The notes beneath the pieces are model-generated. The model worked only from the letters and a program-made list of their open reading frames with translations. It was not told the DNA's origin and ran no database searches. This document shows, in pieces, positions 3,943-63,641 of a stretch of DNA of 64,000 nucleotides (position 1 is the stretch's first letter; every line of letters starts with the position of its first letter). The DNA is taken from contig OZ244803.1 of NCBI GenBank assembly GCA_965220045.1, positions 2,711,901-2,775,900 on the forward strand. The letters are read 5' to 3'. The DNA comes from Chloroflexota bacterium (lineage in GTDB: Bacteria > Chloroflexota > UBA11872 > VXOZ01). The position numbers and the translations under genes were made by a program.

Positions 3943-4217
3943 CGGTCTCCTCCTTCGTACGGAACCGCACTAAGAATCCACGCATTGATATGCCAAACAG
4001 TTTACCACACACCCTCTGGTGCCATACCTGCGTTGGCGCAGGTAGTATAGCATGGGCTTTCGCCAATTGCCAAGACATCTTAGTGCGCACCACTCACAGC
4101 AAATGAAGAACCCAAATGTCACCCCGAACGGAGTGAGAGGTCTAGGATGCCCGTTAACAGAGAATGCGCTATCACGGCCCACGCGCCACAACCGCAGGGG
4201 CAAGCGTTCATACACCC

Positions 4218-4245
4218 GTAGGGGCACGATATATCGTGCCCCTAC
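4218..4245. repeat. Family-B 28 bp perfect palindrome gtaggggcacgatatatcgtgcccctac
   Basis: Perfect inverted repeat read directly. 4 copies in the window (4218, 9172, 18026, 39677), all intergenic. Confidence 0.9.
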
Positions 4246-4254
4246 GGGTGCGCA

Positions 4255-5769: not shown

Positions 5770-6057
5770 ACGCAAACTCCTTGACAAAACCGAAGTGAAT
5801 TGAGCGCGTGCGGCAAGACGCGCCAAAGTTGCCGCACGTCGCGTCCGCCGGAGCCGTTCTCTTGAGGTCGATTGTAGCATCGGCTCGAGCCGCGAGCCGC
5901 GCAAGCGCGGCGGACAGGCGAAGATCATTCGATAAACCGTTCGCCCATCCGCCGCGCTCTCGCCGACTTGCGGGTTTATGTGGACTCTTTGCCAAGGCGC
6001 CTGCGCGTCACGCTACGCGCAGTTTGTGATCGCCGCACACTTCCGGCACATGCGTTC

Positions 6058-7422
6058 CTAGCCGCCCAGGTTGCTGAGGAACGTATCCATGATGGTCTGA
6101 AGCTCTACCTCGGTATCCCGCAGCGTCTCCTCGATGGTCTTCTCGCCGCCAAGCGCGGTCGGCACCACCCTGAGCGTAGCCCCAAGCATCTGGGGCGCGC
6201 CGGGTGCGGGGATGACGAAACGCCGGTTCTCCATCATCTCCACCGCAATCTGCAAGAAAGGATCGTTCTGGTGGTACGCCTCTTGGCGGGAAACGTCCGG
6301 CCGGATCGGCAAGGTGTTGAATGTGTGTGACCAACGGACGTTCACGTCGCCGCTGCCGAAGTGCTCCAGGAACTTCCAGGCGTTCTCCGGCTGCTCGCTC
6401 TGGGTGGTCAGGATCCAGGTGTGGCACCCGCCGTAGGTCATGTGGCGGCCGTCCGGCGGCTTGGGCCAATGGGCCACGTGATATTGCACGTCCGGCACCG
6501 TCCGTTTCATGAGGCCGTGGAGGGTACTCGGCCAGTAGAGATTGGCCACGTGCCCGTCGTAGAAGAGCAAGTGCGGACGGGTATCCTTGCGGAAGTCTTC
6601 AAGCGCCTGCCAGCCGCCCTGCATTTCGTAGATCTTCATGAGCCAGCGCAGACCCTCGATGCCCTCCGGTGTATTGATAGTCACTTTGCTCCCATCATCG
6701 CTGAGCGTCTCGCCGCCCAACTGCCACATGGGCACCATCCAGATGCTGTTGATCTGCCAGAGGGGCGCGAACGCAACCAGCTCGGTCGTATCCCCGCTGA
6801 CGCGCGTGAGCTTGGGGATCACGGCCTCAAGCTCTTCCCAGCTTTCCGGTGGGTTCTCTACGTCCACGCCGTTCTCTAGATAGACGTTGTCATTCATGAA
6901 AACCGGCCGCACGTCCGGACCGAACGGCATGCCCTGGATTTGGCCCTGCCAGGTGAGATCGCGCTGCAGCGACGGCCAGATGTCCTCCTTGCGCACCACG
7001 TCCGACGCGGCCATGAAGGGATCGAGCGGTTGCCCGATTTCCAAGGCGGCGAGGGTCTGGGCCTGCCACGAGCCGGATTGTCCGATGTCCGGGCCGCTGC
7101 CGGCGGCCATGGCGGCCTGTAGCTTGGTGACGCGGTTGCCCTCGGGAATGGTCGGGTCAACCGTAAGCCCGGGGTTCTGCTCCTCGAACTCCGCCACGAC
7201 CTCGCCCCCCAGCCCTTCGCTGAGAGTCCAGAAGGGGACGGTGAAGATCGTGATCGTGTACGGCTCCGGCGCGGGCGCCTCCGTGGGAGCAGGCTCCGCC
7301 GCGGGCTTCTCTTCCATCGTCTCCGTGGGCACCACGGCGGTGCCGCACGCCGCCAGAAGGCCGACCGCTCCGGTCAGCACGGCGCCGCGTAAGACTGCTC
7401 TTCGACTGGTCTTGATGCTCAT
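6058..7422 (-). CDS. ABC transporter substrate-binding lipoprotein, family 1 (divergent paralog)
   Basis: Signal/lipobox MSIKTSRRAVLRGAVLTGAVGLLAACGT, then an Ala/Pro/Glu linker and an SBP-1 body. Confidence 0.8.
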   Translation of the reverse strand: MSIKTSRRAVLRGAVLTGAVGLLAACGTAVVPTETMEEKPAAEPAPTEAPAPEPYTITIFTVPFWTLSEGLGGEVVAEFEEQNPGLTVDPTIPEGNRVTKLQAAMAAGSGPDIGQSGSWQAQTLAALEIGQPLDPFMAASDVVRKEDIWPSLQRDLTWQGQIQGMPFGPDVRPVFMNDNVYLENGVDVENPPESWEELEAVIPKLTRVSGDTTELVAFAPLWQINSIWMVPMWQLGGETLSDDGSKVTINTPEGIEGLRWLMKIYEMQGGWQALEDFRKDTRPHLLFYDGHVANLYWPSTLHGLMKRTVPDVQYHVAHWPKPPDGRHMTYGGCHTWILTTQSEQPENAWKFLEHFGSGDVNVRWSHTFNTLPIRPDVSRQEAYHQNDPFLQIAVEMMENRRFVIPAPGAPQMLGATLRVVPTALGGEKTIEETLRDTEVELQTIMDTFLSNLGG

Positions 7423-7643
7423 GGTCGTCTCCTTAATGCTTGCTCAAAAGTGTCTCCAGCGAGGCGTTAGGAACACGCACTGGTTTGCACCGCTATGGAA
7501 TCCACACACCCTATGCATGGTGTCGCTAAGACGCGAGCGGCTGCTCTTACTCCTTTCTTCTCGTGTTTCCCACGATTCGCCGCACTGTGACCTCAAGACG
7601 CGTACACAGGCCGGTCTCTCCGGCCAAACACCGCGCCTGCGCG

Positions 7644-9071
7644 CTAGTCCTCCGTGATCCGCTGGACGTAGCGGCGCAATTCCAATTCCAAAGCGTCGCC
7701 CACGTCGGCGTGCTCAGCCAGCACGTTTTGCTGGTCGTAGGGATCATCGGGCCGGTGGTAGAGTTCGGGTTCTGTCCGTTCCAGCCCATTGAGGAAATAG
7801 AGGTAGCGCCACTCGTGGTTTTGGATTGACCAGCAGCCCTGGTAGTGGCCCGAATAGGCGTAATCGCGCACGCTCGCCGCCTCCCCGCGCAGCAACGGCA
7901 GCACGCTGACGCCGTGCATCGCTACGTCCTTGCGTCCCACCACCAAATCTTGCGGGAAAGTGCCGGCGGTTTGCGGCGCGATGTACGCCAACGGCAGCGG
8001 CGTGGCAATGTCCAGCGCGTCCAACACCGTCGGCATAAGGTCGGTGTGCTGCACCAGCGCCTCCACGCGCGGCGGCGGCTCCGGCATGGATGCCCGCATT
8101 TCCGCCGGCAGCTTGAGCACCCAGGGCACGCGCACGAGTTCCTCGTAGTTCCACGGACGCGCCTTGCGCACGATGCCGTGCTCGCCGAACGGCTCGCCGT
8201 GGTCGCTCGTCCACATGATCAGGGTATCGTCGTAGATGCCCAGATCACGAATGTGGTCGAGCAGAATGCCCACCCATTTGTCCACGTACGTTACTTTACC
8301 CGCGTAAAGTTCCATCGTGCGTTGGAGTTCCGCCGGCGTGATGTAGCCCTCTACCATTCCCGGCACCGGATCGATGAGCTCCTGGCCGCTGTAGCCGGGG
8401 GTCTTGTACATGGACCAGAAAGGTTCCGGCGGGTCCCACGGCTCGTGGGGGTCGAAGTAGTCCACCCACAGGAAGATCTTGTCGCGCACGCCTTTCTCCT
8501 TCACCGCGCGGTCCAGCCACTGCATGGCGACTTTCGTCACCTGCGGCGTGAAGAAGTCTTCCTCGACCTTGAAATGAGCGCGGTTGCGCAGGTACTGCAC
8601 GTAGTACTCTTCCCAGAGCGCGTCAGTGTCGTCGCCCCGCAGCCGGTGCCAGCGGCTGAGGTCTACCGGCACATCCTCCGTCACCCACGGGTCAGTTGAG
8701 TTGCCGCGCACGAATTCAACCGTGCTAAACCCGCGGCCGCAATTGAAGACCGGCTTGTGCAGGTGGAAGGTATCGGTGATGAGCGCCGAGGTATAGCCTT
8801 TGTCCCAGAGGACTTCCGCTAGCAGGTAGTCGTCCAGCTTAAAGGGCTGCCAGGGACGGAACGGAAAGTGCGTGCGGCCTGTCCAGAAGACCGTCCGCGC
8901 CGGCACCGTGGGCATGCTGTCGGCGTAGGCGTGCAAGAAAGCCGTGCCGTCGGCGGCGAGGCGCTCCAGGTTGGGCGTTGCCACCTTCGTGCCGTGGTAG
9001 TCGTAACAGAGCGGGTCCAGGCTGGTGTGGTCGGCGCGGAGACTATCGGTGCAGATGACGATGATATTCAT
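7644..9071 (-). CDS. Sulfatase-family (alkaline-phosphatase superfamily) protein with Thr at the formylglycine position
   Basis: IIVICTDSLRADH...TPNLERLAADGTAFLHAYADSMPTVPARTVFWTGR. It aligns to the FGly motif of the neighbouring sulfatase but reads T-V-P-A-R instead of C-V-P-A-R. Confidence 0.75.
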   Translation of the reverse strand: MNIIVICTDSLRADHTSLDPLCYDYHGTKVATPNLERLAADGTAFLHAYADSMPTVPARTVFWTGRTHFPFRPWQPFKLDDYLLAEVLWDKGYTSALITDTFHLHKPVFNCGRGFSTVEFVRGNSTDPWVTEDVPVDLSRWHRLRGDDTDALWEEYYVQYLRNRAHFKVEEDFFTPQVTKVAMQWLDRAVKEKGVRDKIFLWVDYFDPHEPWDPPEPFWSMYKTPGYSGQELIDPVPGMVEGYITPAELQRTMELYAGKVTYVDKWVGILLDHIRDLGIYDDTLIMWTSDHGEPFGEHGIVRKARPWNYEELVRVPWVLKLPAEMRASMPEPPPRVEALVQHTDLMPTVLDALDIATPLPLAYIAPQTAGTFPQDLVVGRKDVAMHGVSVLPLLRGEAASVRDYAYSGHYQGCWSIQNHEWRYLYFLNGLERTEPELYHRPDDPYDQQNVLAEHADVGDALELELRRYVQRITED

Positions 9072-9171
9072 GGAAGAGCACTATCCTTTACGTGGACCAA
9101 CTACCGTTCTTCGTCCCAGGGCCGCCCCACGGCAGCCTGCGCGACGTTTGCGTCAGCCTCTGTTTTCGAAG

Positions 9172-9199
9172 GTAGGGGCACGATATATCGTGCCCCTAC
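9172..9199. repeat. Family-B 28 bp palindrome
   Basis: gtaggggcacgatatatcgtgcccctac, identical to the 4218 copy. Confidence 0.9.
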
Positions 9200-9321
9200 G
9201 TCACGTGGGCAAATGTCCCTACGTCATGCAGTCAATTTCCCAATGTCATGGCTTAAAATAAATAGGCCTTGGCCCCGCTAGGAGACCCCCCTTGCAACTG
9301 CGGCTATAGGGGCAAGTCTTA

Positions 9322-9354
9322 CCCCCTCTCCTGGGGGAGAGGGCCGGGGTGAGG
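9322..9354. repeat. Family-E repeat, short form (ccctctcctgggggagagggccggggtgaggg)
   Basis: Corresponds to the two ends of the 80 bp family-E element joined together. Confidence 0.7.
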
Positions 9355-9444
9355 GCGTTCTGGTTTGCCTAGCCCCTCAAACTGAGGAACCTATGTGCAA
9401 TCGTTCCAAAACGCTCATAACTCGTCTGCTTTGCAGTGTTTTCA

Positions 9445-9522
9445 CCCTCACCCCCGTATCATCCGATACTGTGTATCGGCGTACGGGGCAGGCTCTAACC
9501 CTCTCCCTCGTGAGAGAGGGGA
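9445..9522 (+). repeat. Family-E repeat, long form (about 80 bp)
   Basis: ccctcacccccgtatcatccgatactgtgtatcggcgtacggggcaggctctaaccctctccctcgtgagagagggga. About 85% identical to 43645-43725. Confidence 0.8.
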
Positions 9523-9629
9523 CTACCTCGCTGCGGCGAGGGTTACGCAAAGGTCTCCGCAGGGAGTGATTCCCTCACCTCAACAACACTGCATTGACGG
9601 GCGCGCGTGTGCGCTATGCGGGAAACCGC

Positions 9630-9792
9630 GCAGGTTACAAACCTACGCTACCCCAGGTTACAGACCCTCGCTGCCGCAGGTTACAGACCTATGCTACCCC
9701 CAGGTTGCTCACCTTCGCCGCCGCAGGTTACAAACCTGCACTACCCCAGGTTACAGACCTTCGCTACCGCAGCATGCAAACCTTCGCTACCC
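9630..9792 (+). repeat. Tandem array of 7 abutting 23 bp units (caggttacaRacctNcgctaccc), derived from the family-C palindrome
   Basis: The units abut with no spacers, so this is not a CRISPR array. Unit consensus matches the solo family-C elements gcaggttgcaaacctgcgctaccgg. Confidence 0.85.
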
Positions 9793-9816
9793 ATCTATAC
9801 TAGCGTGCTGAAACCA

Positions 9817-11196
9817 CTACAGAGATTCAGCCCACTTATCCAGGACGGCCTGCACTTCCGCTTCTTTCTGCGCCATCGCCTCTTCCGGCGTCACCGCGCG
9901 CGTGGAAGCGTTTACCCACGCTCTTCTATCAATTCCGAGGATTTCATCGTTACCGGGAATCACCGGCACCCACTTGGCTACCTTAATTTCATCCATGACA
10001 GGTATGGCATGGGGCGAGGAGCTTAGAAACTCGTCGGATCGCGCGATGGATTCCAGCGCCGGAACGAGACCGAGCGCATCCGTCCACGCAAGCTGGCTCT
10101 CTTTGGTCATGAGATGCTCGATGAAGCGGAATGCCTGGTCTTGGTGCCCGCCGACTTGCGGCATAGCGATCGACCAGCCGCCTAGGTAGTTCGTCCGCAG
10201 CCCGCCCTCAGGAATCGGCAGACCGCCCACGCCCCAGGTCACAGACGCGCCCCAGTTTTGGTAGCGCCGCGTGGTGCTGGTACCGTTATGGACCATCATG
10301 GAGACACGGCCCACGGTAAAGTGATCGTTCTGTGCGGGATTCGCGTTGCCCAGCGCCGCGGTAATGCCCTCCAGACCGCCTTGCAAGTCCAGCAAGCCCA
10401 GCATGAACTTGAGTGCGTTGATACCGGCATCGTTGTTGAAGTTCGGCTTGCGGTTGTCGGGCGTCAGGTACTCGCCGCCGAGTTGCCAGAACCAGATGTA
10501 CCACTGCAAAAAGTGCGGCGGATTGCCGAACGTCGGTGTGAACCCAATGCGCTCCACCGCGTCGCCGCTGGTCTTGTAGAGCCGCGAGGCCGCGGACTCC
10601 AACTCGTCCCAGGTGCCCACCGGCTCCTCGGGGTCCAGGCCGATTTCGATGAAGTGCTCTTTATTCCAATGGAACGCACGGCCGTCGCAATGCAATGGCA
10701 CGGCGTAGACCTTGCCCTTCCACGTCACATCCTCGCGGAGCTTCGGCCAAAAGTCCTCCCACACGAAGGTGCTGGTTGCATTCACACGCGGAGTGAGGTC
10801 GGCCAGAAACCCCGCCGCGGAGAATTGACCGGCCAGGTAGCGGTCCATGTAGAAGACCTCAGGCGGCGATCCGGCCGCAGCCGCAGTGATGAATTTCTCC
10901 CTGGCGCGCAAGCCTACGGGGATGGGCTGGACTTCGACGTTGATGGCCGGGTTTTGTTCGCGAAACCGCTCTACAATGTTGGCGGCCGGGTGGTCCGGGG
11001 TAGCGAAGACGCTGGCGGCCCAAAAGCTGATAGTCACCGGCTCCGCTGGGGCCGGTGCGGACTCTTCTGCCGCAGGCGCATCGCCTTCAGTCGTGGGCGC
11101 GGCCGCGGGCACCGCTCCGCACGCGGCGAGCACGAGCCCTCCACTCATGACACCGGCGGTTGCGAACAATCTTCTGCGGGTAACGGTCGTCGCCAT
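9817..11196 (-). CDS. ABC transporter substrate-binding lipoprotein, family 1 (carbohydrate)
   Basis: MATTVTRRRLFATAGVMSGGLVLAACGA lipobox, Ala/Pro/Glu linker, clear paralog of 2551-3942. Confidence 0.85.
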   Translation of the reverse strand: MATTVTRRRLFATAGVMSGGLVLAACGAVPAAAPTTEGDAPAAEESAPAPAEPVTISFWAASVFATPDHPAANIVERFREQNPAINVEVQPIPVGLRAREKFITAAAAGSPPEVFYMDRYLAGQFSAAGFLADLTPRVNATSTFVWEDFWPKLREDVTWKGKVYAVPLHCDGRAFHWNKEHFIEIGLDPEEPVGTWDELESAASRLYKTSGDAVERIGFTPTFGNPPHFLQWYIWFWQLGGEYLTPDNRKPNFNNDAGINALKFMLGLLDLQGGLEGITAALGNANPAQNDHFTVGRVSMMVHNGTSTTRRYQNWGASVTWGVGGLPIPEGGLRTNYLGGWSIAMPQVGGHQDQAFRFIEHLMTKESQLAWTDALGLVPALESIARSDEFLSSSPHAIPVMDEIKVAKWVPVIPGNDEILGIDRRAWVNASTRAVTPEEAMAQKEAEVQAVLDKWAESL

Positions 11197-11496
11197 CGCT
11201 CTTCCTCCCGTCTTGAAAGTTTGACGGACTTAACCATATTGAAGATATTGCTATGGATTTAACCAATAGTCAATAGCTTTCAAGGGGATTCTACTGTGGG
11301 TATGGCGAATAGGGAGGTGATTGGCAAGGTTTGAGCGCGGCGGAGCGCTCTTGAATGCCCGCCTTGCTCCCGGTCCATGGGGCGCAGACCCGCTAACCCG
11401 CGCTCGGAGGCCGCAATGGCCGTGCCGCAGGAGGCGCCGGAGTCGATCAGATTCCTATAGGAAGACTGCCTGGAGTGCGAAACATTGGACCGTCGC

Positions 11497-12069
11497 TTAA
11501 AAGGGCATATTGAATGAGAAAAGCTCCCGCAGGACGGCCCAGATGCTGCTATAGATCGCGCCCACCCAGAAGATGCCGTTGAGCGTGGTGCCGACAACGA
11601 CGAGCGTATACGCGCGCTTGCCCGTAATGCCCATAAGCCAGATGAGCGGCACGCCGGCCATCGTGGGGCCGGAGAGGGTGTAGACCAGGAGGACGACCAG
11701 GTTGCGCCGTCTCTCCGTAGCCTCGACAAATCTGCGAATCTTCTCCAGGCGAGCCGTCTTGGCGCGAATCCAATCGGAGAGATCGAGTTCGAGCAGGAGC
11801 AAGTAGAGCAACGCGCCGTTCAGGACGATCATCACCAGGATGGTGGCGGTTGTGGCGACGAAGCCATTGTAGCGCAGGATGAGATAGTTCGAAAAGATCG
11901 TAACGATGATATCGATGGACGGCCACAGCACCAGCGTGACCAACCGCCGGAGATACTTCCTCACGGTGAGAGGATCGACCTCACGCGGGGAGACGCGGTT
12001 GACGAATTTCGTCACGCGCCTCTCGATTGTGCGGTTGTCCGGCTGGGGTTCGGTGGACGTTGCGGACAT
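11497..12069 (-). CDS. Hypothetical integral membrane protein (about 4 TM helices)
   Basis: Hydrophobic helices only. No recognisable family motif. Confidence 0.4.
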   Translation of the reverse strand: MSATSTEPQPDNRTIERRVTKFVNRVSPREVDPLTVRKYLRRLVTLVLWPSIDIIVTIFSNYLILRYNGFVATTATILVMIVLNGALLYLLLLELDLSDWIRAKTARLEKIRRFVEATERRRNLVVLLVYTLSGPTMAGVPLIWLMGITGKRAYTLVVVGTTLNGIFWVGAIYSSIWAVLRELFSFNMPF

Positions 12070-12147
12070 AGAATTCAGACCGTTAATTGCAAAGTGAGTA
12101 GTCTCGCAGGGCCGCGCATAAAACCGGTCTACCGCTCGCCGGCCTCG

Positions 12148-13473
12148 TCAGCGCCCGACAACCGTATCCATGCCGACCAGCGGCACGTTGGCAATAAGCG
12201 AGGCCTCGAGGCTGAGGGCCCGCAGGTCTTCAACTTCCAGGTCATGGACGTTTGCTTTGCCGCACGCACGCGCGAGCAATTGAATTTCCTGCGTCAACGT
12301 GGCAATGAAGTTCGCCAGGCGCAGCGCCGCTTCCTCAAATCCGGGGATCTCCGCCATTGCCCCCCGGGTCATGGCAGCGCGCTCTTCATCATCGGCGGCA
12401 GCGTCGTCAACGTGTTCGGGTGATCCATCTTGTTCGAATTGCGCCGTGACGTCCCGCGACCACGGTTCCAGCGAGACCAGCGCGGCGGTGCCGATGGAGA
12501 CGGCGTCTACGCCCAAGGCCAGCGCCTTGGCTACATCGGCACCGCTGCGGATGCCGCCGCAGAGGATCAAGCCGACCTCGTCTTCAAGACCCAACTCTTC
12601 CAACGCGCGCCGGGCCTGGCACACCGCCGCGATACCGGGAACACCCGTGTTCTGGTTCAGGACTGCCGGACCGGTGGAAGCGCCGGCTTCCATGCCCTCC
12701 ACCGTGATGATGTCCGCGCCGGCTTTGGCCGCCAATAGCACGTCGTCATAGACGTGCGCGGCGCTGATCTTGACAATGATGGGCACGCGCCAGTCTGTGG
12801 CCTCCCGCAGCTCTTCCACCTTCTTGGGGAGGTCGTCCGATCCGACCCAGTCCGGGTGCCGCGTCGGCGCGTGTGAGAGGCGGGAATACGCCGTTTCCGG
12901 CAGTGTCCCCGCGGACCGCGCTCCATCCCTGTCTAAACGAGACGGCATGCCGATACTTGGACTAAGGCCGCGCACGCTCACGAGCTCGATCACGTCGGCC
13001 TGGAGCATGTGACGCGGATTGAAGTCAACGCGGCTCGGCAGCACTTCGTAGGAAAGCATTCCGGCGAATTCTCGCTCCTCCGCCAGCATGCCGCCATACC
13101 CGGTGGTGTAGACAATGCCGGCGTGGGCCGAACCGTACGCGAGCGCCGCCCGCACCACCGGCGACAGCAGTTTGGCGCCCATGCCGGCGATCGTCACCGG
13201 CGTGCTGAGCACCAGCGGCTCCCCCGCAAACCGCGTCCCCAGGGTCGTGGCGGTCGTGCACTGCTCGTAGAAGGCTTCCAACGGCACGCGGCTGAGCGCG
13301 CACGGAATCAAAGTGAGATCATCGAACGTAGGAAACGCCCGCGACCGAACCGCCCGCGCTACGCGGCCGTTTCCCGCAGCGCTGGACTCTGCCTCCGGGG
13401 CCGCTACCTGAGCGGGATCGGATCCAGCATTCCTGTTCGCCTGCGACTCCATTTCCCGAGCTAGCCTTCCCAA
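12148..13473 (-). CDS. Glutamate synthase FMN-binding domain protein (GltB domain-2-like / MgsC-like)
   Basis: IIVKISAAH...AGADIITVEGMEAGASTGP...GVP...LILCGGIRSGADVAKALALGVDAV is the glutamate-synthase central-domain signature. Confidence 0.85.
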   Translation of the reverse strand: MGRLAREMESQANRNAGSDPAQVAAPEAESSAAGNGRVARAVRSRAFPTFDDLTLIPCALSRVPLEAFYEQCTTATTLGTRFAGEPLVLSTPVTIAGMGAKLLSPVVRAALAYGSAHAGIVYTTGYGGMLAEEREFAGMLSYEVLPSRVDFNPRHMLQADVIELVSVRGLSPSIGMPSRLDRDGARSAGTLPETAYSRLSHAPTRHPDWVGSDDLPKKVEELREATDWRVPIIVKISAAHVYDDVLLAAKAGADIITVEGMEAGASTGPAVLNQNTGVPGIAAVCQARRALEELGLEDEVGLILCGGIRSGADVAKALALGVDAVSIGTAALVSLEPWSRDVTAQFEQDGSPEHVDDAAADDEERAAMTRGAMAEIPGFEEAALRLANFIATLTQEIQLLARACGKANVHDLEVEDLRALSLEASLIANVPLVGMDTVVGR

Positions 13474-14189
13474 CGTGGACTGTCATCCGTGGCAGTTTTG
13501 CCTGCGCAACCGTCCGTACCGCCGCCTGCCGCGTTAGCCATGCCACCGGCTGCGGAGCTGGCCGTGAACTTGCGGAACGGCCGCGCGTGGGCGAGACCCG
13601 CCGTGGCGACGATCCCATCGACGCGCGCGCGCTCATCTTCCGTTAGCGCGGACTCCGCCACGCCCTCGCCGAGTTGCCCCACCGCACCGGCCACGTAGAT
13701 GCGGCCGCCGTACATACCGTGTCCCAGGCGCTGACTCGCGTTTCCGCAGACGATCAGGTCCCCGTCATGCATCATGAACCCGCTCATAAACCCGACGTTG
13801 CCCCCTATCACCACCATACCACCAACCATGCCGATGCCGGTGCGGGCGGCCGCATTGCCGTGCACGCAGACTATGCCGCCGTGCAGCGCGGCGCCCGTGG
13901 CATTGCCCGCATTGCCGCGCACGACGACACTGCCGCTTTGGAGGCCTTCGCCGGTACTCCACCCGGCGCTGCCGTGAATCTCCACCGTCGGACCGTCGCC
14001 CATTGCTCCGCAATAGTAGCCGACGCTCCCCTCGAATATGAGATGCACGGGTTGAAACAACGCCACGCCGAGACTGTGCCGCCCCCGGGGATCGTAGACG
14101 TGAATGTCGTGCTCCCCCTGCTCGATCGCGTGGCGGATGAGCTGGTTCACTTCTCGCGTGGAACGATCGACCGCTTCAATGAAGAACAT
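13461..14189 (-). CDS. GXGXG-motif protein (glutamate synthase C-terminal domain / FwdC / MgsB-like)
   Basis: Repeated G-rich beta-helix segments (VRGNAGNATGAALHGGIVCVHGNAAARTGIGMVGGMVVIGGNVG) typical of the GXGXG domain. Confidence 0.8.
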   Translation of the reverse strand: MFFIEAVDRSTREVNQLIRHAIEQGEHDIHVYDPRGRHSLGVALFQPVHLIFEGSVGYYCGAMGDGPTVEIHGSAGWSTGEGLQSGSVVVRGNAGNATGAALHGGIVCVHGNAAARTGIGMVGGMVVIGGNVGFMSGFMMHDGDLIVCGNASQRLGHGMYGGRIYVAGAVGQLGEGVAESALTEDERARVDGIVATAGLAHARPFRKFTASSAAGGMANAAGGGTDGCAGKTATDDSPRWEG

Positions 14190-14213
14190 GATGCCTATTC
14201 AGGATTTGGCGAT

Positions 14214-15155
14214 CTATTCAGGGGATTCTAAGGGCACGTGGGTCCGGGCGCGCCACACGTGCACTTCTTTGGCGTCAGGCTCCCACGTCGCCAATTCTTG
14301 CTCCAGCCCCTCGCAGATCGCGGCGGCTTCTGAGCTGACGACGACAAATTCATCGGTTTCGGCGATGACGAGCGGCCGCGCACCCATGAAGTCCTTGGCC
14401 GCGCCGAGTTCCTTGTCGGTTGCCGCGACAAAGGCATAGGTGCCATCGAGCACGTCAAGCGAGGCGCGCATCGCATCTTCCAGCGAGGCTCCCTGATCCA
14501 TCTCCATCGCCAGGAAGGCGCCAATCACCTCCGCGTCATTCGTGGTGAAGAAGCGCTGTCCCTTAGACTCGAACTTCCGGCGGAGCTTGTGGTAGTTGGT
14601 GACTTGCCCCGCATGCGCCACCGCCATGTCTGGCCGCGGCCGCGCCCAGAACGGCTGCGAATGGCTTACGTCGACGCGACTTTCCGTGGCCAGGCGCGCT
14701 TGGCCGATCATGTGGGTGCCCCGTATCGCAGAGAGATTGTATTCCGCTTCAAGATGCTCGATTGAGCCGACGTCCTTGACGATGCTGAGACGGCGGCCGA
14801 CACTGAAACACTCGACGTCACCGCCTTCGCTAACGCTCTCGATGATGCTTACTATCCCATGAATATCTTCGACCCTGTCGAGGACGAGTTGCAGGGCATG
14901 ACCCACCATGCGCGACTTCACGACTTTGGCCTTGCGGCCCACCCGCCGCACCACGCGCCCGCTCAGCGTGCGCACGTCGTCGCCTTCCATCTTCACCGCC
15001 ACCAAGAACTGGCCGTACGTCTCCGGCACGAAGAACGCCGCCCCGGTAGAATCCGGCGCGTATGGCGAGAGCGAACGCAGCATCTTCATGGCAATGTCAC
15101 CGATTGGCGCATAGCCGTCGCCGCCGCGGTCGAGGTAGCCGACGACTCCATACAT
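14214..15155 (-). CDS. Class-II glutamine-amidotransferase-like (Ntn) subunit (GltB domain-1 / MgsA-like). The N-terminus is MYG, not MCG
   Basis: Size and profile match GATase-2 (GVVGY..., ...AHAGQVTNY...). There is an in-frame TAG 7 codons upstream and no alternative start, so residue 2 is Tyr where the Cys nucleophile is expected. Confidence 0.7.
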   Translation of the reverse strand: MYGVVGYLDRGGDGYAPIGDIAMKMLRSLSPYAPDSTGAAFFVPETYGQFLVAVKMEGDDVRTLSGRVVRRVGRKAKVVKSRMVGHALQLVLDRVEDIHGIVSIIESVSEGGDVECFSVGRRLSIVKDVGSIEHLEAEYNLSAIRGTHMIGQARLATESRVDVSHSQPFWARPRPDMAVAHAGQVTNYHKLRRKFESKGQRFFTTNDAEVIGAFLAMEMDQGASLEDAMRASLDVLDGTYAFVAATDKELGAAKDFMGARPLVIAETDEFVVVSSEAAAICEGLEQELATWEPDAKEVHVWRARTHVPLESPE

Positions 15156-15295
15156 ATCTGCAACCTTTCTTCTTCTATCATACGCCTTAAAGGCCAGAGC
15201 GCACGCCTTTGTCGCTTCAGCTACGCCGCAGAATGGCTTGCAGCATCAGACCGATCGCATGCAGCGACCGGAGACGCAAACGCGGTTTTGCATGC

Positions 15296-15325
15296 TTGAC
15301 CCTCTTTTTGCGCCGCACCTATAAT
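15296..15325 (+). promoter_or_regulatory. Consensus sigma-70-type promoter (TTGACC, 18 nt spacer, TATAAT) about 80 nt upstream of the tRNA
   Basis: ttgacc ctctttttgcgccgcacc tataat, read directly. Confidence 0.5.
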
Positions 15326-15405
15326 TTAAGGGCACCCATCAGGGCGGCACTGAGGCCGGATGTGCGGTCCTCAAATCATGACTGCGGCCGTATGCTGCAG
15401 AATCC

Positions 15406-15480
15406 GCCGACGTAGCTCAATGGCAGAGCAGCGGTTTTGTAAACCGCAGGCTATGGGTTCGAATCCCTTCGTCGGCTCCA
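15406..15480 (+). tRNA. tRNA-Thr (anticodon UGU), CCA encoded
   Basis: Cloverleaf folds by hand: acceptor gccgacg/cgtcggc, D stem gctc/gagc, anticodon stem gcggt/accgc with loop ttTGTaa, T loop ttcgaat, 3' CCA. Confidence 0.8.
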
Positions 15481-15647
15481 ATTGCTGGTGGACTTGCCAG
15501 CTCCCTGGGCGGGTGGTCGGTTTCTGGGCACACCGGCTTGGTTCGTTTCTGTTTCGCAGTTGAGCGGAGAGAACGGATTTGCGCTTGCGTGCGGTGTTGA
15601 AAAGCTGCGCGGCGGGCGGCATAGTCTGCTGAAAGGGGAGGCGCACC

Positions 15648-17891
15648 GTGGCACGGGTTGATGCAAAGTGGGTATCGATCGAAGTCCAACCTGAATCCGG
15701 CGCCGAACCGGACCGGTGCGACGTTGCCTTCCACGGTGTTGACGGCGCCGTAGACCGGGGCTTAGCGCTCACTCTGCCCGCTGGCAGAGTAGGGACCTGG
15801 GAGCTTACCGTAACCGTCCGGGATGCCGTGCAGGTTGGCGGCGGCTTCCTGTTCCAGCGTCACGGCTTTCTGCTCGGGCACCGTGTGCAGGATTACAATC
15901 CGCGCGGGCGCGACTACGTTACGCTGGAGTCCCACACGGGGACGCCCTTGCGTCTGGTGGTGAATTCCCTCAACCAGTCCCACCGGCCGAGCTTTGCCCA
16001 GGTGCTCGTGACTGATGGCGCACTCGCGCCGGGCGACCGCTTTACGCTGCGGATCGGCGACCGGCGGCAAGGCGGCGCCGGCAGTGAGGTCTACGACTCC
16101 ACGACGCTAGGCCGTTTCGTCATGGCCGTTGACCGTACCGGCGCGGGATCCTACCGCACGCTGGCGTGCAGCCCGGCGAGCATCCGGATTACGGCTGAGC
16201 CCCAGCCGGACAAGCTGCGTGTCCTCGGCCCCTCCGTGGTCGCGCCCGATGAACCCTTTGCCCTTCACCTGGTGGCCTTCGACCGGCATCGCAATGTGTG
16301 CGACCGGTACCGGGGTACGGTGGCCTTCTCCGACGCCGGTTCGGCATACGCCGGGCTTCCGCCGGCAGTCACGTTCACCGCACGGGAACAGGGAATTCTC
16401 GTCATCGATGACGTGCGCCTAACGTCACCCGGCCTCTATCGTCTCTCTGCTATAGACGAAGAAAGCGGCTTGCAGGCGCTGAGCAATCCTGTCCTCTGCG
16501 AGACCGCGCCGGAGCGACGTCTCTTGTGGGGTGAATTGCATTGCCATAGCTGGGGCGACACGACGCTGGCGCTGATGAGCGAGCCGAACTTCAAGGTACA
16601 TCCCGCCCGGCGGCACGAGCAGGCGCGGCAGGTGGGTCGCCTGGACTTCTGTTCGCCGGGGCCGATGTCCGCGCCCGATGACGCAGTCCGGCCCGAGGTC
16701 TGGCAGGCGCACCAAGCGGCCTACCATGCCAATGACGAGCCGGGCACGTACGTACCATTCCTGGCCTATGAGGCGCATCCGGGCACCGGCGGTGACCGCA
16801 ACGTCGTCTTTCATGCACATGAAGCCACTCATCTGCCCATGAAAGCATCCATGGACGACGTGATGGCTACGTACGGCGACCGTGCTGACGTGTTGTTGGA
16901 AGCCCACATTGGCGGCGGCCCACCCAACTGGACCGCCTATCCCACCGAGGAAGCGCCGCTGCTGGAGGTCACGAGCGGGCACGGGGCGTTCGAGTGGGTG
17001 CTGCAGCGCGCGCTCCGCCACGGCTACCATCCGGCGGTGATTGGTTCGAGCGACGTGCACCTGCCGACGCTTGGCGCGCCCATGTCGGCTCACTGCTTCC
17101 GGGGTCGCTTCAACCATGAACTCAACATCCGCGATACGGCGTTTGGCAGCGGCCAGGTGGCCGGGGTCTACGCGGCAGCCTGCGAACGAGAAGCAATCTG
17201 GCAGGCGATCCGGGACCGGCGTACGTTTGCCACCACCGGCGCGCGCATCATCCTGGACGTGAGCGCGAATGGGGAACCGGCCGGCAGTTTTGTCACGTCG
17301 TCCGGAGACGTGGATCTGCGCATTGTCGCGCACGGCTGTGCGCCAATCGAGCGGATGGACGTGATTCGCGGCGACCGCTGCTTGATTTCCTGGTTTCCCG
17401 GTGAACTTGACTCGTCAATCGGCTACACCGACACGCAACCCCTGCGCGCAGGCGCCTATTATGTACGCCTCCGCCAGACGGATGGCGAATATGCCTGGAG
17501 CACGCCGGTCTGGGTTCACTGTGCCGACGGCAGTGCTGCGCCCGATCCGAACCAGCCGCTGTGGAACGCCCACGAGCCCGTTGACCTAACGCAATTGCGG
17601 CCGAATGGGGCGGAGCAATATGAGGCCGCGCTCCTGGAATACCTGGAAATAGAGGAAGACCCGGCGCTGTTCCGAGACCTGACTCCGGTGAAACTGCTCG
17701 ATGAAGCGCCCGGCCGCTCGGCCTTGTTCTACGCCTACTACGCCGACGACGGCTGGCCGGTGAGTATTCGCTGGTACTACGAGTTCGACCTGCCGCGCAT
17801 CCACCTGGACTGGGGCTGGCGCGATTTCGGCGCGCGCCCCACCCCCACGAACATCACCGAACCGGCGGAAGAGAAACCGCCTTTGGCCTGA
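15648..17891 (+). CDS. DUF3604 family protein (predicted metal-dependent hydrolase)
   Basis: LWGELHCHSWGD (HxH), ...LDFCSPG..., GSSDVH, REAIWQAIRDRRTFATTGARIILD and C-terminal ...YYVRLRQTDGEYAWSTPVWV match the DUF3604 pattern I recall. Paralog of 61704-63641. Confidence 0.65.
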   Translation: MARVDAKWVSIEVQPESGAEPDRCDVAFHGVDGAVDRGLALTLPAGRVGTWELTVTVRDAVQVGGGFLFQRHGFLLGHRVQDYNPRGRDYVTLESHTGTPLRLVVNSLNQSHRPSFAQVLVTDGALAPGDRFTLRIGDRRQGGAGSEVYDSTTLGRFVMAVDRTGAGSYRTLACSPASIRITAEPQPDKLRVLGPSVVAPDEPFALHLVAFDRHRNVCDRYRGTVAFSDAGSAYAGLPPAVTFTAREQGILVIDDVRLTSPGLYRLSAIDEESGLQALSNPVLCETAPERRLLWGELHCHSWGDTTLALMSEPNFKVHPARRHEQARQVGRLDFCSPGPMSAPDDAVRPEVWQAHQAAYHANDEPGTYVPFLAYEAHPGTGGDRNVVFHAHEATHLPMKASMDDVMATYGDRADVLLEAHIGGGPPNWTAYPTEEAPLLEVTSGHGAFEWVLQRALRHGYHPAVIGSSDVHLPTLGAPMSAHCFRGRFNHELNIRDTAFGSGQVAGVYAAACEREAIWQAIRDRRTFATTGARIILDVSANGEPAGSFVTSSGDVDLRIVAHGCAPIERMDVIRGDRCLISWFPGELDSSIGYTDTQPLRAGAYYVRLRQTDGEYAWSTPVWVHCADGSAAPDPNQPLWNAHEPVDLTQLRPNGAEQYEAALLEYLEIEEDPALFRDLTPVKLLDEAPGRSALFYAYYADDGWPVSIRWYYEFDLPRIHLDWGWRDFGARPTPTNITEPAEEKPPLA

Positions 17892-17950
17892 CAGGTCGTC
17901 GTTTCAGATAGTTCATCCGTCGTTGTTTAAGATTGTTCATCCAAAGGACT

Positions 17951-17980
17951 GTCATTCCCGCGCAAGCGGGAATCCATCTT
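17951..17980 (+). repeat. Family-A hairpin (GCAA loop variant)
   Basis: gtcattcccgcGCAAgcgggaatccatctt. Confidence 0.85.
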
Positions 17981-18025
17981 CCTCTTGAATCGCGGGGTGA
18001 AGGGGTCTCCATTTCCGCCGCAAGA

Positions 18026-18053
18026 GTAGGGGCACGACATGTCGTGCCCCTAC
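18026..18053. repeat. Family-B palindrome (loop variant acatgt)
   Basis: gtaggggcacgacatgtcgtgcccctac. Confidence 0.85.
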
Positions 18054-18188
18054 GTCAAGAACCCGGCCCGCACTCCCATGTCCAGGGTCAACGCACACTT
18101 TTATTCATGCGCGGGCGAGCATCTATACTTTAGTGAGACACACCTTTGTATTTACCAACCTTCCCGTAAATAGGAGGTATCAACCGCC

Positions 18189-19223
18189 ATGCGCCCGCTC
18201 GCCTTCGAATACGACCTCTCCCAACACATCGATGAAGCGGAGCCGACAATGCTCTTCACCGGCTCCACGCCTGAGGAGCTCCGCGACTGGCAGGAGCGCT
18301 TCCGCGCCAAAGTGCTGAGCCTGCTGGGCATCCTGCCGGAGCGCGCCGCCCTCGTGGTCGAGTACGAGGAGGAAGTTGACTGCGGCGCCTACATCCGCCA
18401 CAAGCTGCGCTACCAGACCGAGGCAGCAGTCTGGGTGCCGGCCTATCTCCTGGTACCCAAAGGCGTATCCGCCGCGCAGCCAACAGCCGCGATCCTCTGT
18501 TTGCACGGCCACGGGCGCTTCGGCAAAGACAGCGTGGTCGGCATCAAGGACACGCCGGAGCGTACCGACGAGGTGGAACGCCTGCAGTACGACTTCGGCC
18601 GCCGCTTTGCCGAGCAGGGCTACGTGGTGCTCGCGCCCGACCTGCGCGGCTTTGGCGAGCGCCAGCCGCACTACCCTGATCCCAAGCCCGACTACTGCTG
18701 CCGCAACTACATGGCCGCGACGCTGCTGGGCCGCACCGTGGTCGGCTATCAGCTCTGCGACCTGCACGCGGCGTTGGACGTGCTGCAGTCGCTACCCTAC
18801 GTAGATGCCGAGAAGCTCGCCGCGGCGGGTCTTTCCTACGGCGGGCGCATGACAATGCTGATCAGCGCCATGGACGACCGCATCAGGGCCTGCGTGCCTT
18901 CCGGCTGCCTGAACATGTACCAGGAGCGCTACCAGAACCTGCACCAGTGCGGATCGCAACTCATTCCCAGCCTGTTGCTCTACGGCGACACGCCCGAGAT
19001 CTTCTCGCTTATCGCGCCCCGCCAGATGACTATCGAGTGGGGCCTGCAGGATAAGCTCATCCCCCACGAGTGGGCCGAGCGCGGCCTCGCCCGCATCCGC
19101 AACGCCTACGCCGCCTCCGGGCAACCGGAGAATCTCGCCGTGCACCAGTTTGATAAAGGCCACGTCTTCGAAGGCACCGTGGGCGCGGAGATGCTGCACC
19201 AGTGGCGGCAGGGCGTACAATGA
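18189..19223 (+). CDS. Alpha/beta hydrolase (dienelactone hydrolase / acetyl-xylan-esterase-like)
   Basis: LCLHGHG..., nucleophile elbow GLSYGG, C-terminal His region. AGGAGG RBS 8 nt upstream. Confidence 0.7.
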   Translation: MRPLAFEYDLSQHIDEAEPTMLFTGSTPEELRDWQERFRAKVLSLLGILPERAALVVEYEEEVDCGAYIRHKLRYQTEAAVWVPAYLLVPKGVSAAQPTAAILCLHGHGRFGKDSVVGIKDTPERTDEVERLQYDFGRRFAEQGYVVLAPDLRGFGERQPHYPDPKPDYCCRNYMAATLLGRTVVGYQLCDLHAALDVLQSLPYVDAEKLAAAGLSYGGRMTMLISAMDDRIRACVPSGCLNMYQERYQNLHQCGSQLIPSLLLYGDTPEIFSLIAPRQMTIEWGLQDKLIPHEWAERGLARIRNAYAASGQPENLAVHQFDKGHVFEGTVGAEMLHQWRQGVQ

Positions 19224-61703: not shown

Positions 61704-63641
61704 ATGTCAACGCAACTCAGCGGACATCCAGACGGCCCGCAGCCGCGCGTCTTTGACGACTCCAGCGAATGGATGCGGGGTATCACCCGGACGTGGCAGT
61801 TCCTGCCGCCGGTCGACATGCGGGCTGCCATCACACCGGACGAGGTCGAGGCGGCCAGCGGACATACGTTTGTCATCACACTGACGGCGGGGCCGGGTCT
61901 GGTCCTGCCCGCAGGCGCCCATATCACCGTGGAAATCCCGGATTGCTGGGACTGCCATTTGGGCAACTGCTACCGCCGGGGTGTAAATACGCTCGTTAGC
62001 CGCGACCAAAACCGCGCGGGCTATGGCGCGTTTGCTGACGTGACGTGTACGAACGCCGGCGTGCAACTCGCCCTTGCCGTCTCCTATGGACGCCATCTCG
62101 ATCTGCTCGATGTGGTGGTGCAAGCCGGCACACTGCAGGCGGGAGACGAAGTGCAGATCACTATGGGCGCGCCTGACGGCAATCTGCTGCAGGCACAGAA
62201 GTTCGCCCAGACCGCCGTATTCAGCATCGGCGTCGACGCGGACGGCAGCGGAGAGTACCGGCAAATTGCCAACTTCCCCACCGTGAAGGTGGTGGGCGCG
62301 GGCGAGGCCGACCGGTTTCGCGTCTTTGCGCCCGCCGTGGTACAGCCGGGTGAGTCTTTCGACGTGCGCGTGCTGCCGGTGGATATCTATAGCTTCAATC
62401 CCGCGACGAACTATGCCGGCGAGGCACAGGTGTTCGCGCCGGAGGGCGTGGCGACAGCCGAACGCATCGCATTAGACACTGCGGCGCAGCCCTTGGGACA
62501 GACCCTTGCCGTCACCGCCAAGACGAGCGGCGTACACACGCTCAGCGTTTTCGATCCCATAGCGGGCATTTCCGGCAAGAGCAATCCCACCGGTGTCGGC
62601 TTCCTGTCGGACCGCGGCGTCTATTTCGGCGAGATGCACAGCCAGATGTGGCACAGCATGGGCACGGGCACCACGGAGGAGTTCTTTGGTTGGGGCCGCG
62701 ATGTCGCCGGACTCGACTTCTGTGCGCCTGCGAATCACTACAACTGGCGCTTCGAGGTGACTGACGACATCTGGCAGGATCTCGTCGCCGACTGCAACCG
62801 CTGCAACGACCCCGGCAGATTCGTCACGCTCGTTAGCTTCGAGTGGGGCGGCATTGGCGGCAGCGGACACAAGAACATCTACTACCGGGGTGTTAGCGGC
62901 CCGTTCCACTATTGGTACCAAGGCCAACACCGCGACCCGGATGCGCTCTGGCAAGACATGGCCGGCCGGGGACTGGAGGCGCTCACCGTGCCCCACCATC
63001 CCAAGTCCATGGGCGGCGCCGACTGGCGCTTCCGCAACGACCGCTATCAACGGCTGGTCGAAATCTGTTCCATGTGGGACATTGCGGAAGAGTCCGGGCC
63101 GCTCAGCGTACAGGCCGCCTTGGCGATGGGACACCGCCTCGGCTTTGTGGGCGGCACGGACAGTCACTACGGTCTGGCCAACCAAGGCAGCTTTCACGTG
63201 AACGACGGCAACGGGCTCGCCTGCGTGGTGGCGCCGGAACTGACGCGCGAGGCCATCTGGCAGGCACTCTACGACCGCCGCTGCTACGCCACCACCGGCG
63301 ACCGCATTCTGCTGGACTTCACCCTTGACGACAGGCTCATGGGCAGCGATCTATCCGCCGACCTGAGTGCGGTTGGGCCGCGCCGCTTGCGCATGCGCGC
63401 GGCAGGCACGGCGACAATCACGAGGGTGGAGGTCATCCGCAACAATGAGGTGGTCTTCAGCGCCGACCCGCAAACCGACGTGTGGGAAGACGAGTGGACC
63501 GACACCGCCGACCTATCCGCAGTTGCCTTTGCGCCCACGTTCCCCAATGACCGCCCGTTCGTCTACTACTACCTGCGCCTTTACCAAACCAACCGCCAGC
63601 GCGCGTGGAGCAGCCCGATCTGGTTTACGCAGGCGGACTGA
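61704..63641 (+). CDS. DUF3604 family protein, divergent paralog (HxH motif degraded to H-S-Q)
   Basis: YFGEMHSQMWHS, LDFCAP, GGTDSH, REAIWQALYDRRCYATTGDRILLD, C-terminal YYYLRLYQTNRQRAWSSPIWF. Confidence 0.65.
   Translation: MSTQLSGHPDGPQPRVFDDSSEWMRGITRTWQFLPPVDMRAAITPDEVEAASGHTFVITLTAGPGLVLPAGAHITVEIPDCWDCHLGNCYRRGVNTLVSRDQNRAGYGAFADVTCTNAGVQLALAVSYGRHLDLLDVVVQAGTLQAGDEVQITMGAPDGNLLQAQKFAQTAVFSIGVDADGSGEYRQIANFPTVKVVGAGEADRFRVFAPAVVQPGESFDVRVLPVDIYSFNPATNYAGEAQVFAPEGVATAERIALDTAAQPLGQTLAVTAKTSGVHTLSVFDPIAGISGKSNPTGVGFLSDRGVYFGEMHSQMWHSMGTGTTEEFFGWGRDVAGLDFCAPANHYNWRFEVTDDIWQDLVADCNRCNDPGRFVTLVSFEWGGIGGSGHKNIYYRGVSGPFHYWYQGQHRDPDALWQDMAGRGLEALTVPHHPKSMGGADWRFRNDRYQRLVEICSMWDIAEESGPLSVQAALAMGHRLGFVGGTDSHYGLANQGSFHVNDGNGLACVVAPELTREAIWQALYDRRCYATTGDRILLDFTLDDRLMGSDLSADLSAVGPRRLRMRAAGTATITRVEVIRNNEVVFSADPQTDVWEDEWTDTADLSAVAFAPTFPNDRPFVYYYLRLYQTNRQRAWSSPIWFTQAD

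Follow-up and report, generated by a model that had tools for sequence, protein, structure and literature searches.

Two divergent PHP-superfamily proteins with altered predicted metal-ligand sets, and a probably independent tRNA-Thr unit, in an uncultivated Chloroflexota bacterium

Solved structures of the PHP superfamily, among them TM0559 (2anu), a two-domain Bacteroides protein (3e38), histidinol phosphatase (4gc3, 2yxo), YcdX (1m65) and RNase AM (9etk), provide the structural comparison for the two genes described here, and two functionally characterised systems provide the biochemical one. The first consists of the CehA/McbA carbaryl hydrolases of Rhizobium sp. AC100 and Pseudomonas sp. 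C5pp and XWY-1, of which McbA depends, when it hydrolyses carbaryl, on three histidines in its PHP-like domain (PMC8292978). The second is PsfC (7rty) from Pseudomonas fosfomycin biosynthesis, a single-domain, oxidative enzyme of 244 amino acids that is encoded in a phosphonate gene cluster, converts 2-phosphonomethylmalate to 3-oxo-4-phosphonobutanoate and contains dinuclear non-heme iron (bioRxiv 10.64898/2026.01.15.699783). We examined a stretch of 64,000 nucleotides from an uncultivated Chloroflexota bacterium (contig OZ244803.1, positions 2,711,901 to 2,775,900; hereafter the window), which carries a tRNA-Thr gene followed by an open reading frame (ORF), A, and a distant paralog of it, B. 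Many orthologs of A and B are named DUF3604 by NCBI and JGI; a preliminary description of this DNA had called the function of that family unknown, and our search of the full-text literature on DUF3604/PF12228 likewise returned no paper on function. With moderate confidence, we read the tRNA-Thr gene as an independent unit, A as a putative metal-dependent hydrolase and B as a remodelled enzyme that probably still works. The tRNA and its promoter are routine; what is new here is that a fold already known carries variant ligands. The two ORFs are as follows.

15648-17891, + strand: ORF A, 747 amino acids, GTG start; immunoglobulin (Ig)-like region, PHP domain, beta-sandwich and C-terminal domain
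61704-63641, + strand: ORF B, 645 amino acids; Ig-like region, PHP domain and beta-sandwich as in A, without A's C-terminal domain

Residues 1 to 285 of A form Ig-like beta-sandwiches, residues 286 to 545 the PHP barrel, residues 546 to 627 a further beta-sandwich and residues 628 to 747 a C-terminal domain specific to A. The sandwich that follows the barrel, together with an R..A...RR helix motif, is shared with 3e38, whereas the approximately 285 extra N-terminal Ig-like residues set A and B apart from the solved PHP proteins. Neither translation, when read through, contains a signal peptide or a hydrophobic N-terminal stretch, and both proteins are predicted to be cytoplasmic. B starts 44 kb from A, and the two are 27% identical over 621 amino acids (BLASTP, E = 4e-42), with a profile-profile comparison (hhalign) giving 100% probability and E = 1.3e-86, which bears out the paralogy proposed in the preliminary description. 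The shared motifs that it listed (LDFCSP/LDFCAP, GSSDVH/GGTDSH, REAIWQA..DRR.[FY]ATTG.RI.LD and AWS[TS]P[VI]W) are all present in both translations. The two copies in the window are not a local duplication, since A and B each have their own orthologs, at 55 to 63% identity, in other phyla; these separate cross-phylum orthologs and the 27% identity rule out a recent tandem duplication. Sequence comparison identifies A and B as two different and equally ancient orthologous families. Orthologs of A are 744 to 747 amino acids long at 100% coverage, and the closest genomes carrying A are metagenome-assembled genomes of Chloroflexota; orthologs of B span several bacterial phyla and extend to a genome of Bathyarchaeota. 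When A was compared by phmmer with 1.84 billion cluster representatives (50% identity), 3,945 relatives were found at E<=0.001, 1,890 at 1e-10 and 298 at 1e-30.

Two observations concern domains outside the barrel. The second Ig-like domain of A (residues ~175-297, nucleotides 16170-16538) matches no Pfam model in either A or B, and it recurs 15 to 21 times in tandem in giant proteins of 1,664 to 3,319 amino acids (P0274, P0300, P0319, P0328 and P0358), which makes it a widely reused module. In a single case, P0233, a DUF3604-like relative of B, a CBM_4_9 domain is fused at the N terminus (residues 43-174; 31.2 bits, cutoff 25.9).

AlphaFold2 models of A and B, with predicted local distance difference test (pLDDT) scores of 92 and 95, contain the distorted (beta/alpha)7 barrel of the PHP superfamily; a PHP or amidohydrolase-like fold had been proposed for checking, and the models and their structural matches identify it as PHP. 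These matches, each with its two recorded values, were 3e38 (20.5 and 16.5), TM0559 (2anu; 19.1 and 17.2), PsfC (7rty; 17.3 and 13.4) and EndoQ (5zb8; 14.6 and 13.4), followed in rank by RNase AM, PolX, YcdX and histidinol phosphatases. Single-sequence phmmer searches of A and B against PDB sequences gave nothing meaningful, and the similarity to any one solved PHP protein is not significant alone (E 0.16-1.6). Both proteins pass the 20.4-bit threshold of Pfam PF12228 (DUF3604), A with 40.7 bits and B with 65.2, through partial matches that are restricted to the most conserved PHP segments: A covers 48 of the 591 model positions (367-414), and B matches in two stretches, the best of which spans positions 131-228 (~98 of 591). 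For the CehA/McbA model NF038032, which has a cutoff of 80 bits, B scores 88.4 bits over positions 3-314 of 315 and A falls below the cutoff with 36.1 bits over positions 161-314. We assign A and B to the PHP superfamily, and A to its CehA/McbA-DUF3604 branch.

Candidate metal ligands were mapped by aligning profiles of A and B to 3e38, with weak E values of 0.16 and 1.6, and their assignment to metal sites is one that we take to be the same as in histidinol phosphatase structures. All of the PHP motifs fell in register with 3e38 (H-x-H or H-x-Q, the His of T-E-H, Glu, G-H, a single His and D-x-H) and, as in other PHP proteins, the ends of the strands carry the ligands, which follow one another in the canonical series H-x-H, E, H, H and D-x-H. 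Conservation was counted over 88 orthologs of A and 88 of B.

16539..16547, + strand: motif I of A, H298-C299-H300, aligned to H-M-H of 3e38; H298 and H300 in 88/88 A orthologs
62637..62645, + strand: variant motif I of B, H312-S313-Q314; Gln in 87/88 B orthologs
Asp of S-x-D-G: unaligned in A, with D304 conserved nearby; M319 in B
His of T-D-H: deleted in A (PGP); H345 in B (A-N-H345)
Bridging Glu: E375 in A; E380 in B
G-H: D383 in A (Asp in 88/88); H389 in B
Asn two residues past G-H: N385 in A; N391 in B
Single His: H420 in A; H431 in B
Glu of I-E-V: E440 in A; E453 in B
D-x-H: D469 and H471 in A; D486 and H488 in B

Every aligned ligand position of A in this list is 98 to 100% conserved, as is every one of B, M319 aside, at 99 to 100%. 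The H-x-H of PHP motif I is present in A and is replaced by H-x-Q in B. Both proteins have the bridging Glu, the two further His and the D-x-H found in PHP enzymes, except that one of these His is Asp in A. The ligands of the third metal site are incomplete in both, A having no T-D-H His and B having Met or Ile, hydrophobic residues, in place of the S-D-G Asp. By alignment, the first metal site of A would be complete (H298, H300, E375 and D469), its second would comprise E375, D383 and H420, with Asp for His, and its third would be depleted by the deletion of the motif II His, which together with the Asp makes A itself non-canonical at two positions. The invariant D333/D338 of the L-D-F motif was considered as a further ligand; in the models it lies N-terminally on strand 2, and it was treated as structural.

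The preliminary description had pointed out H-S-Q in B where A has H-C-H, and had stated that B has lost the motif. The observation is correct: Q314 of B aligns with the second His of H-M-H in 3e38 and with H300 of A, and GELHCH of A was aligned to GEMHSQ of B by BLASTP, by hhalign and by MAFFT with 46 and with 222 sequences. The two might have slipped apart as more homologs were added, and H-S-Q still meets H-C-H across hundreds of them. The implied decay is another matter. If B were a dead pseudoenzyme or a binding protein without a metal site, its altered second His in motif I and the Met at the third-site Asp would be accounted for, and Gln is an uncommon metal ligand. However, decay would leave scattered substitutions rather than a fixed alternative set, and the Gln is found in 87 of 88 B orthologs, drawn from several bacterial phyla and the Bathyarchaeota genome, with the other nine candidate ligand positions 99 to 100% conserved. 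Motif I was also compared among 113 independent cluster representatives at 50% identity, of which 79 have His and 29 have Gln at the second position, and the Gln is accompanied, in recurring patterns, by a hydrophobic residue at the S-D-G Asp position. The CehA/McbA model, moreover, fits B better than A. These results argue that H-x-Q is a selected state and make a lifeless B very unlikely; B is probably, as judged from its conserved residues, a working enzyme with a remodelled, binuclear metal centre and a substrate different from that of A. More distant relatives have the canonical H-x-H, S-D-G and [ST]-D-H, and the alignments sort the relatives into three classes by their ligands: the canonical class, the A-type and the H-x-Q type. 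The classes were taken from an alignment-based table, a regular expression having caught only 25 of 147 proteins.

The gene partners of A were examined in loci fetched from relatives, which are designated by L-numbers; L014 and L032, L023 and L031, and L037 and L038 are the same places fetched twice. Loci were searched for with the single A protein, alignment A1 being too diverse, and a tighter alignment used for metagenomes gave 11 loci. The strongest functional link of A, which the preliminary description did not contain, is a DegT/DnrJ/EryC1 aminotransferase gene that directly abuts an A-type gene in 15 fetched loci, repeat fetches included. This arrangement occurs in a second Chloroflexota clade (L018-L022, L025, L026 and L046), in L023/L031 with a methyltransferase gene in between, in Latescibacterota (L014/L032, with a 4-nucleotide overlap in L032), in Gemmatimonadota (L037/L038, DegT overlapping a second A-type copy by 22 nucleotides in L037) and, with DegT downstream, in a clade at 40% identity (L029 and L047). 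The partner DegT proteins that were compared (L031, L032 and L037) are 59 to 69% identical to one another, which matches the divergence of the A proteins, and the solved structures closest to them are those of aminotransferases acting on sugars and on scyllo-inosose. The window itself has DegT genes at 59227-60570 and 50427-51644, which are 30 to 34% identical to the partner type and were rejected as partners of A.

A second conserved neighbour of A is an esterase-like serine hydrolase, separated from it in the window by a spacer with two palindromic elements.

18189..19223, + strand: Abhydrolase_7 serine hydrolase (Pfam PF12715), conserved neighbour of A
17949..18055, + strand: spacer between A and the esterase, with a palindrome like repetitive extragenic palindromes (REPs) at 17949-17977 and a perfect hairpin with a 12-bp stem at 18028-18055

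The nearest structures of this hydrolase are 3g8y (SusD/RagB-associated esterase-like) and 3nuz (putative acetyl xylan esterase), and it adjoins A in four lineages: the window's own Chloroflexota clade, Latescibacterota and two Gemmatimonadota-type loci. On the + strand of the window, A is followed by Abhydrolase_7, DUF6782-like and BtrH_N/DUF4872 genes and an Opp-type ATP-binding cassette (ABC) transporter, with long spacers between them. A GFO/IDH/MocA oxidoreductase, a methyltransferase or sulfatases neighbour A in some loci. In L037, the order on one strand (5747-17566) is GFO/IDH/MocA, esterase, A-type gene, sulfatase, DegT, second A-type gene, hypothetical gene and sulfatase; in L027, sulfatases stand on both sides of A. 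The window was said to place its DUF3604 genes next to sulfatases and sugar-uptake genes, which is true only loosely, as the two sulfatase and three SBP_bac_1 genes lie 4 to 13 kb upstream of A on the other strand; the link to sulfatase and carbohydrate-type genes does recur around orthologs in other phyla. A separate observation concerns L032 (6724-14368), where a compact same-strand array contains, in this order, DegT, an A-type gene, Abhydrolase_7, a third, distant DUF3604-like gene whose 744-amino-acid product is 31% identical to A, and a methyltransferase gene.

The results above show how the proteins fold, which ligand sets are conserved, which loci are syntenic and which genes are partners; the metal content, hydrolytic chemistry and substrate class we infer as follows. 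A would be a cytoplasmic, metal-dependent enzyme of the PHP superfamily, with two N-terminal Ig-like domains before its catalytic barrel, that hydrolyses an ester on a small intermediate, an aminated sugar or cyclitol that its DegT partner produces or uses. The esterase and the sulfatases would remove other decorations, and B would most likely work in the same way on a different substrate. As a first and tentative guess, the ester cleaved by A may be a phosphate ester. This guess follows from the facts that PHP enzymes are mainly phosphoesterases and that there are precedents for an aminotransferase followed by a phosphatase, namely, HisC and then the PHP histidinol phosphatase and, in kanosamine synthesis, NtdA and then NtdB. 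By analogy with these pairs, DegT-A may be read as a pyridoxal phosphate-dependent aminotransferase gene coupled to a hydrolase gene, the likeness to NtdA lying in the DegT family of the partner and that to histidinol phosphatase in the PHP fold, which that enzyme founded. No phosphorylated substrate and no kinase or nucleoside diphosphate-sugar gene was identified beside DegT-A, and the analogy is purely one of pathway logic. The anionic glycan or phosphoester that had been suggested as a substrate would fit the gene context, and the DegT link is the more specific lead.

Several points weigh against this proposal. The window's own clade has no orthologous DegT gene beside A. These phyla are rich in GFO/IDH/MocA, sulfatase and URO-D genes, so that chance may account for some of the neighbourhoods that contain them. 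Of the third-site ligands that canonical PHP phosphoesterases use, one or two are missing from both A and B. The literature search found no report of a substrate, a metal or an activity for the family, and the characterised relatives closest to A and B, CehA/McbA and PsfC, are respectively a carbamate esterase and an oxidative diiron enzyme rather than phosphatases.

The depleted third site, which would suit a non-phosphate substrate, and the kinship with CehA/McbA together keep a role as carboxyl- or carbamoyl-esterases a serious rival, in which A and B would be esterases or amidases of the CehA/McbA type, acting on the carbamate, carboxyl-ester or amide bonds that occur in small natural products or in decorated sugars. 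B matches the whole 315-position CehA/McbA model above its cutoff (88.4 versus 80 bits) and some B orthologs are so named by NCBI; alone among members of that model, CehA and McbA have been characterised biochemically, and the dependence of McbA on its PHP-domain histidines agrees with such a role. A's conserved neighbour, too, encodes a hydrolase that is esterase-like, and the B ortholog of L039 lies between genes for a PhyH dioxygenase and a CocE/Peptidase_S15 hydrolase. Nevertheless, A reaches only 36 bits on the model, and the kinship is to an NCBIfam model, not to the CehA and McbA sequences themselves. Carbaryl is a xenobiotic, no natural substrate class is known for the branch, and the DegT partnership is explained no better than by a phosphatase. 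Nor does the setting resemble that of CehA/McbA, there being no carbamate-degradation genes nearby and the host being an uncultivated Chloroflexota bacterium rather than a soil pesticide degrader. We regard this role as possible but rather doubtful.

Non-hydrolytic chemistry would be expected if one or both proteins were dinuclear-iron oxidases like PsfC, acting on an organic acid or a phosphonate in an O2-dependent reaction. PsfC is indeed a dinuclear non-heme-iron enzyme, and the altered ligands of B and A (Gln and Asp) could tune redox metals. The similarity to PsfC is at the level of the fold only (13 to 16% identity), however, PsfC has no Ig-like domains, and no phosphonate genes (PepM or Pmm synthase) were present near A, B or their orthologs in the loci examined. 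None of the features that define PsfC, from its single short domain to its phosphonate cluster, is found at A or B, and we consider an oxidase of this kind highly improbable. A broader alternative, which we think unlikely though less so, is that A-type and H-x-Q B-type proteins are two undescribed enzyme families with a re-tuned PHP centre, A belonging to an as yet unknown amino-sugar or aminocyclitol pathway centred on DegT. Here the change of His to Asp at the second site of A, and that of His to Gln with loss of the third site in B, would be the re-tuning, and A would catalyse a hydrolytic or even a non-hydrolytic step in uncultivated Chloroflexota, Latescibacterota and Gemmatimonadota, with DegT co-evolving.

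The two proteins give a concrete handle on a family without known function that comprises ~3,900 clusters at 50% identity (E<=0.001). To that family the present analysis adds the PHP fold, three ligand classes, H-x-Q as a selected state and the DegT-A-esterase module, whose genes overlap in Latescibacterota and Gemmatimonadota loci, as a testable partner. If the chemistry were solved, several thousand environmental proteins could be annotated and an amino-sugar or cyclitol pathway might come to light in Chloroflexota, Latescibacterota and Gemmatimonadota that are uncultivated and in part probably host-associated; the results have no bearing on any long-standing open question.

Upstream of A, the window contains the following elements of the tRNA-Thr unit and of the start of A.

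15296..15325, + strand: sigma-70-type promoter of tRNA-Thr; TTGACC at 15296-15301, spacer of 18 nucleotides, TATAAT at 15320-15325
15326..15405, + strand: pre-tRNA leader, ~75-80 nucleotides, from an alignment of 15 loci
15406-15480, + strand: tRNA-Thr, anticodon UGU (TGT), found by ARAGORN as the only tRNA in the window
15508..15538, + strand: GC-rich hairpin followed by a T-containing tract (RNAalifold, 10 species)
15635..15650, + strand: Shine-Dalgarno sequence GGGGAGG at 15635-15641 and GTG start codon of A at 15648-15650

The tRNA-Thr(UGU) with its TTGACC-18-TATAAT promoter, as first described, is real. Rfam model RF00005 matches positions 15406-15477 with 72.3 bits, the CCA end is genome-encoded, and the promoter, 80 nucleotides 5' of the tRNA, matches the consensus at 11 of 12 positions. 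It is the sole site of at least 11/12 when both strands of the 64 kb are scanned, the number expected in first-order Markov simulations of this window (61% G+C) being 0.13. TTGACCC-N17-TATAATT shows little or no variation among the 13 related Chloroflexota species whose fetched locus reached this far, whereas the leader sequence is weakly conserved and differs in length among species in the 15-locus alignment; conservation of the promoter beside a varying leader is the phylogenetic footprint of a working promoter. The gene combines a cloverleaf, an anticodon, hexamers at a spacing of 16 to 18 nucleotides and conservation in relatives. The leader matches no Rfam family. In most relatives the leader has CGCGGTT-like motifs, and the leaders of L006 and L013 (~9480-9598) contain two or three tandem units of ~21 nucleotides, GAAGTA(C/T)GCGGTTTGCAAAAC, which are absent from the window.

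The hairpin begins ~28 nucleotides 3' of the tRNA and has 12 predicted pairs, 4 of which show compensatory double changes; a simple scan also marked a terminator-like site at 15524-15541. It is weaker in the window's own sequence (z = -0.8 across the whole 93 nucleotides). This element is probably a terminator or a processing signal of the tRNA unit. A follows on the same strand, as had been stated, at a distance of 167 rather than 170 nucleotides from the tRNA end. The interval matches no riboswitch or other Rfam family besides the tRNA. Among 15 loci the only conserved block at its 3' end is AGGGAGG followed by GTG or ATG, which fixes the start codon of A; beyond this block and the hairpin it is not conserved, and the spacer is 156 to 435 nucleotides long in relatives. 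A second promoter-like site, TTGAAA-17-CATAGT at 15597-15625, matches at only 9/12 positions, is not conserved and was not claimed.

The preliminary description placed the tRNA and its promoter immediately upstream of A and asked whether the DNA downstream of the tRNA is an integration hotspot. Transcription of A from the tRNA promoter, or an integration site at the tRNA, might seem natural for a gene on the same strand 167 nucleotides from a tRNA, and read-through into A is given some room by the weak T-tract of the hairpin, which counts against a fully independent unit, and by the poor quality of the alternative site at 15597-15625. Yet the hairpin is conserved, and together with A's own conserved Shine-Dalgarno sequence and start codon it argues that the tRNA promoter is not a dedicated promoter of A. 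As for an island with A as its cargo, gene content beyond the esterase does differ between species. However, in every one of the 14 close species, whose A is 79 to 91% identical, this tRNA lies upstream of A, and A adjoins the esterase in 13 of 14 related species; the glutamate-synthase-like genes upstream are equally syntenic. No integrase family is represented among the neighbouring genes, and no direct repeat of the tRNA 3' end was seen adjacent, so that an integrase, a 3'-end repeat and variable cargo directly after the tRNA, the marks of a tRNA-linked genomic island, were not found, and the stable synteny without an integrase leaves the hotspot idea unsupported. Orthologs of A at 63% identity or less have no tRNA nearby, which we count against both ideas. 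We consider it distinctly unlikely that the promoter also drives A by read-through or that the tRNA marks an integration site; the tRNA-Thr gene is an ordinary, strongly promoted housekeeping gene in stable synteny within one Chloroflexota clade, and in our reading an independent unit. On the other side of its promoter, a divergent gene trio on the - strand (12148-15155) encodes GATase_7, GXGXG and Glu_synthase domains, resembles split glutamate-synthase-like genes of the glxBCD type and is syntenic in all 14 relatives whose locus reaches far enough upstream.

The neighbours of B orthologs are more varied than those of A and include DUF3574, URO-D, PhyH with a CocE-type hydrolase, and a sulfatase with Peptidase_M55. 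The Latescibacterota locus L039 (6028-10654) is a tight same-strand group of the PhyH dioxygenase gene, a B ortholog (63% identical) and the Peptidase_S15/CocE-type hydrolase gene. Genes of the URO-D (uroporphyrinogen decarboxylase-like) family turn up repeatedly, no more than a few kb away, beside B orthologs and beside one distant A-like gene; the loci concerned come from Planctomycetota, Bathyarchaeota, Anaerolineae and one unassigned contig.

URO-D family genes: L035 9994-11151; L036 246-1337 and 11907-13055; L040 13683-14762; L041 2477-3439 and 10209-11333

In the window, B lies between two direct copies of an rve-family insertion sequence (~55530-56621 and ~63903-64000, the second running past the window end), which are 98% identical over at least 300 nucleotides, have terminal inverted repeats and enclose 7.3 kb. 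The enclosed segment contains two hypothetical genes, a DegT aminotransferase gene, DUF3574 and B in a composite-transposon-like layout. In L033 coordinates the two copies lie at 3827-4918 and 12200-13291, and the relative L034 has DUF3574 and B without them. An ankyrin-repeat gene is found near B; this gene and several isolate names suggest host-associated bacteria of sponges or corals.

The REP-like palindrome in the spacer between A and the esterase is one of a dispersed set, GTCATTCCCGCG(N)AAGCGGGAATCCAT, scattered through the window. Its 16-nucleotide core, TCCCGCNNNNGCGGGA, occurs 10 times versus 0.03 expected, and the occurrences that were read, the A-esterase spacer copy and 85-nucleotide tandem units at 57832-58001 with two cores, are intergenic.

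REP 16-nucleotide cores: 163, 609, 871, 2295, 17956, 46055, 55365, 57796, 57838, 57923

Elsewhere in the window are a gene for a ComA-type phosphosulfolactate synthase (43777-44604, 312 bits), two adjacent GT9 heptosyltransferase-like genes (35796-38194) and a gene for a 745-amino-acid PQQ-type beta-propeller protein (29741-31978), the last an unusual companion of sulfatase and ABC-transporter genes.

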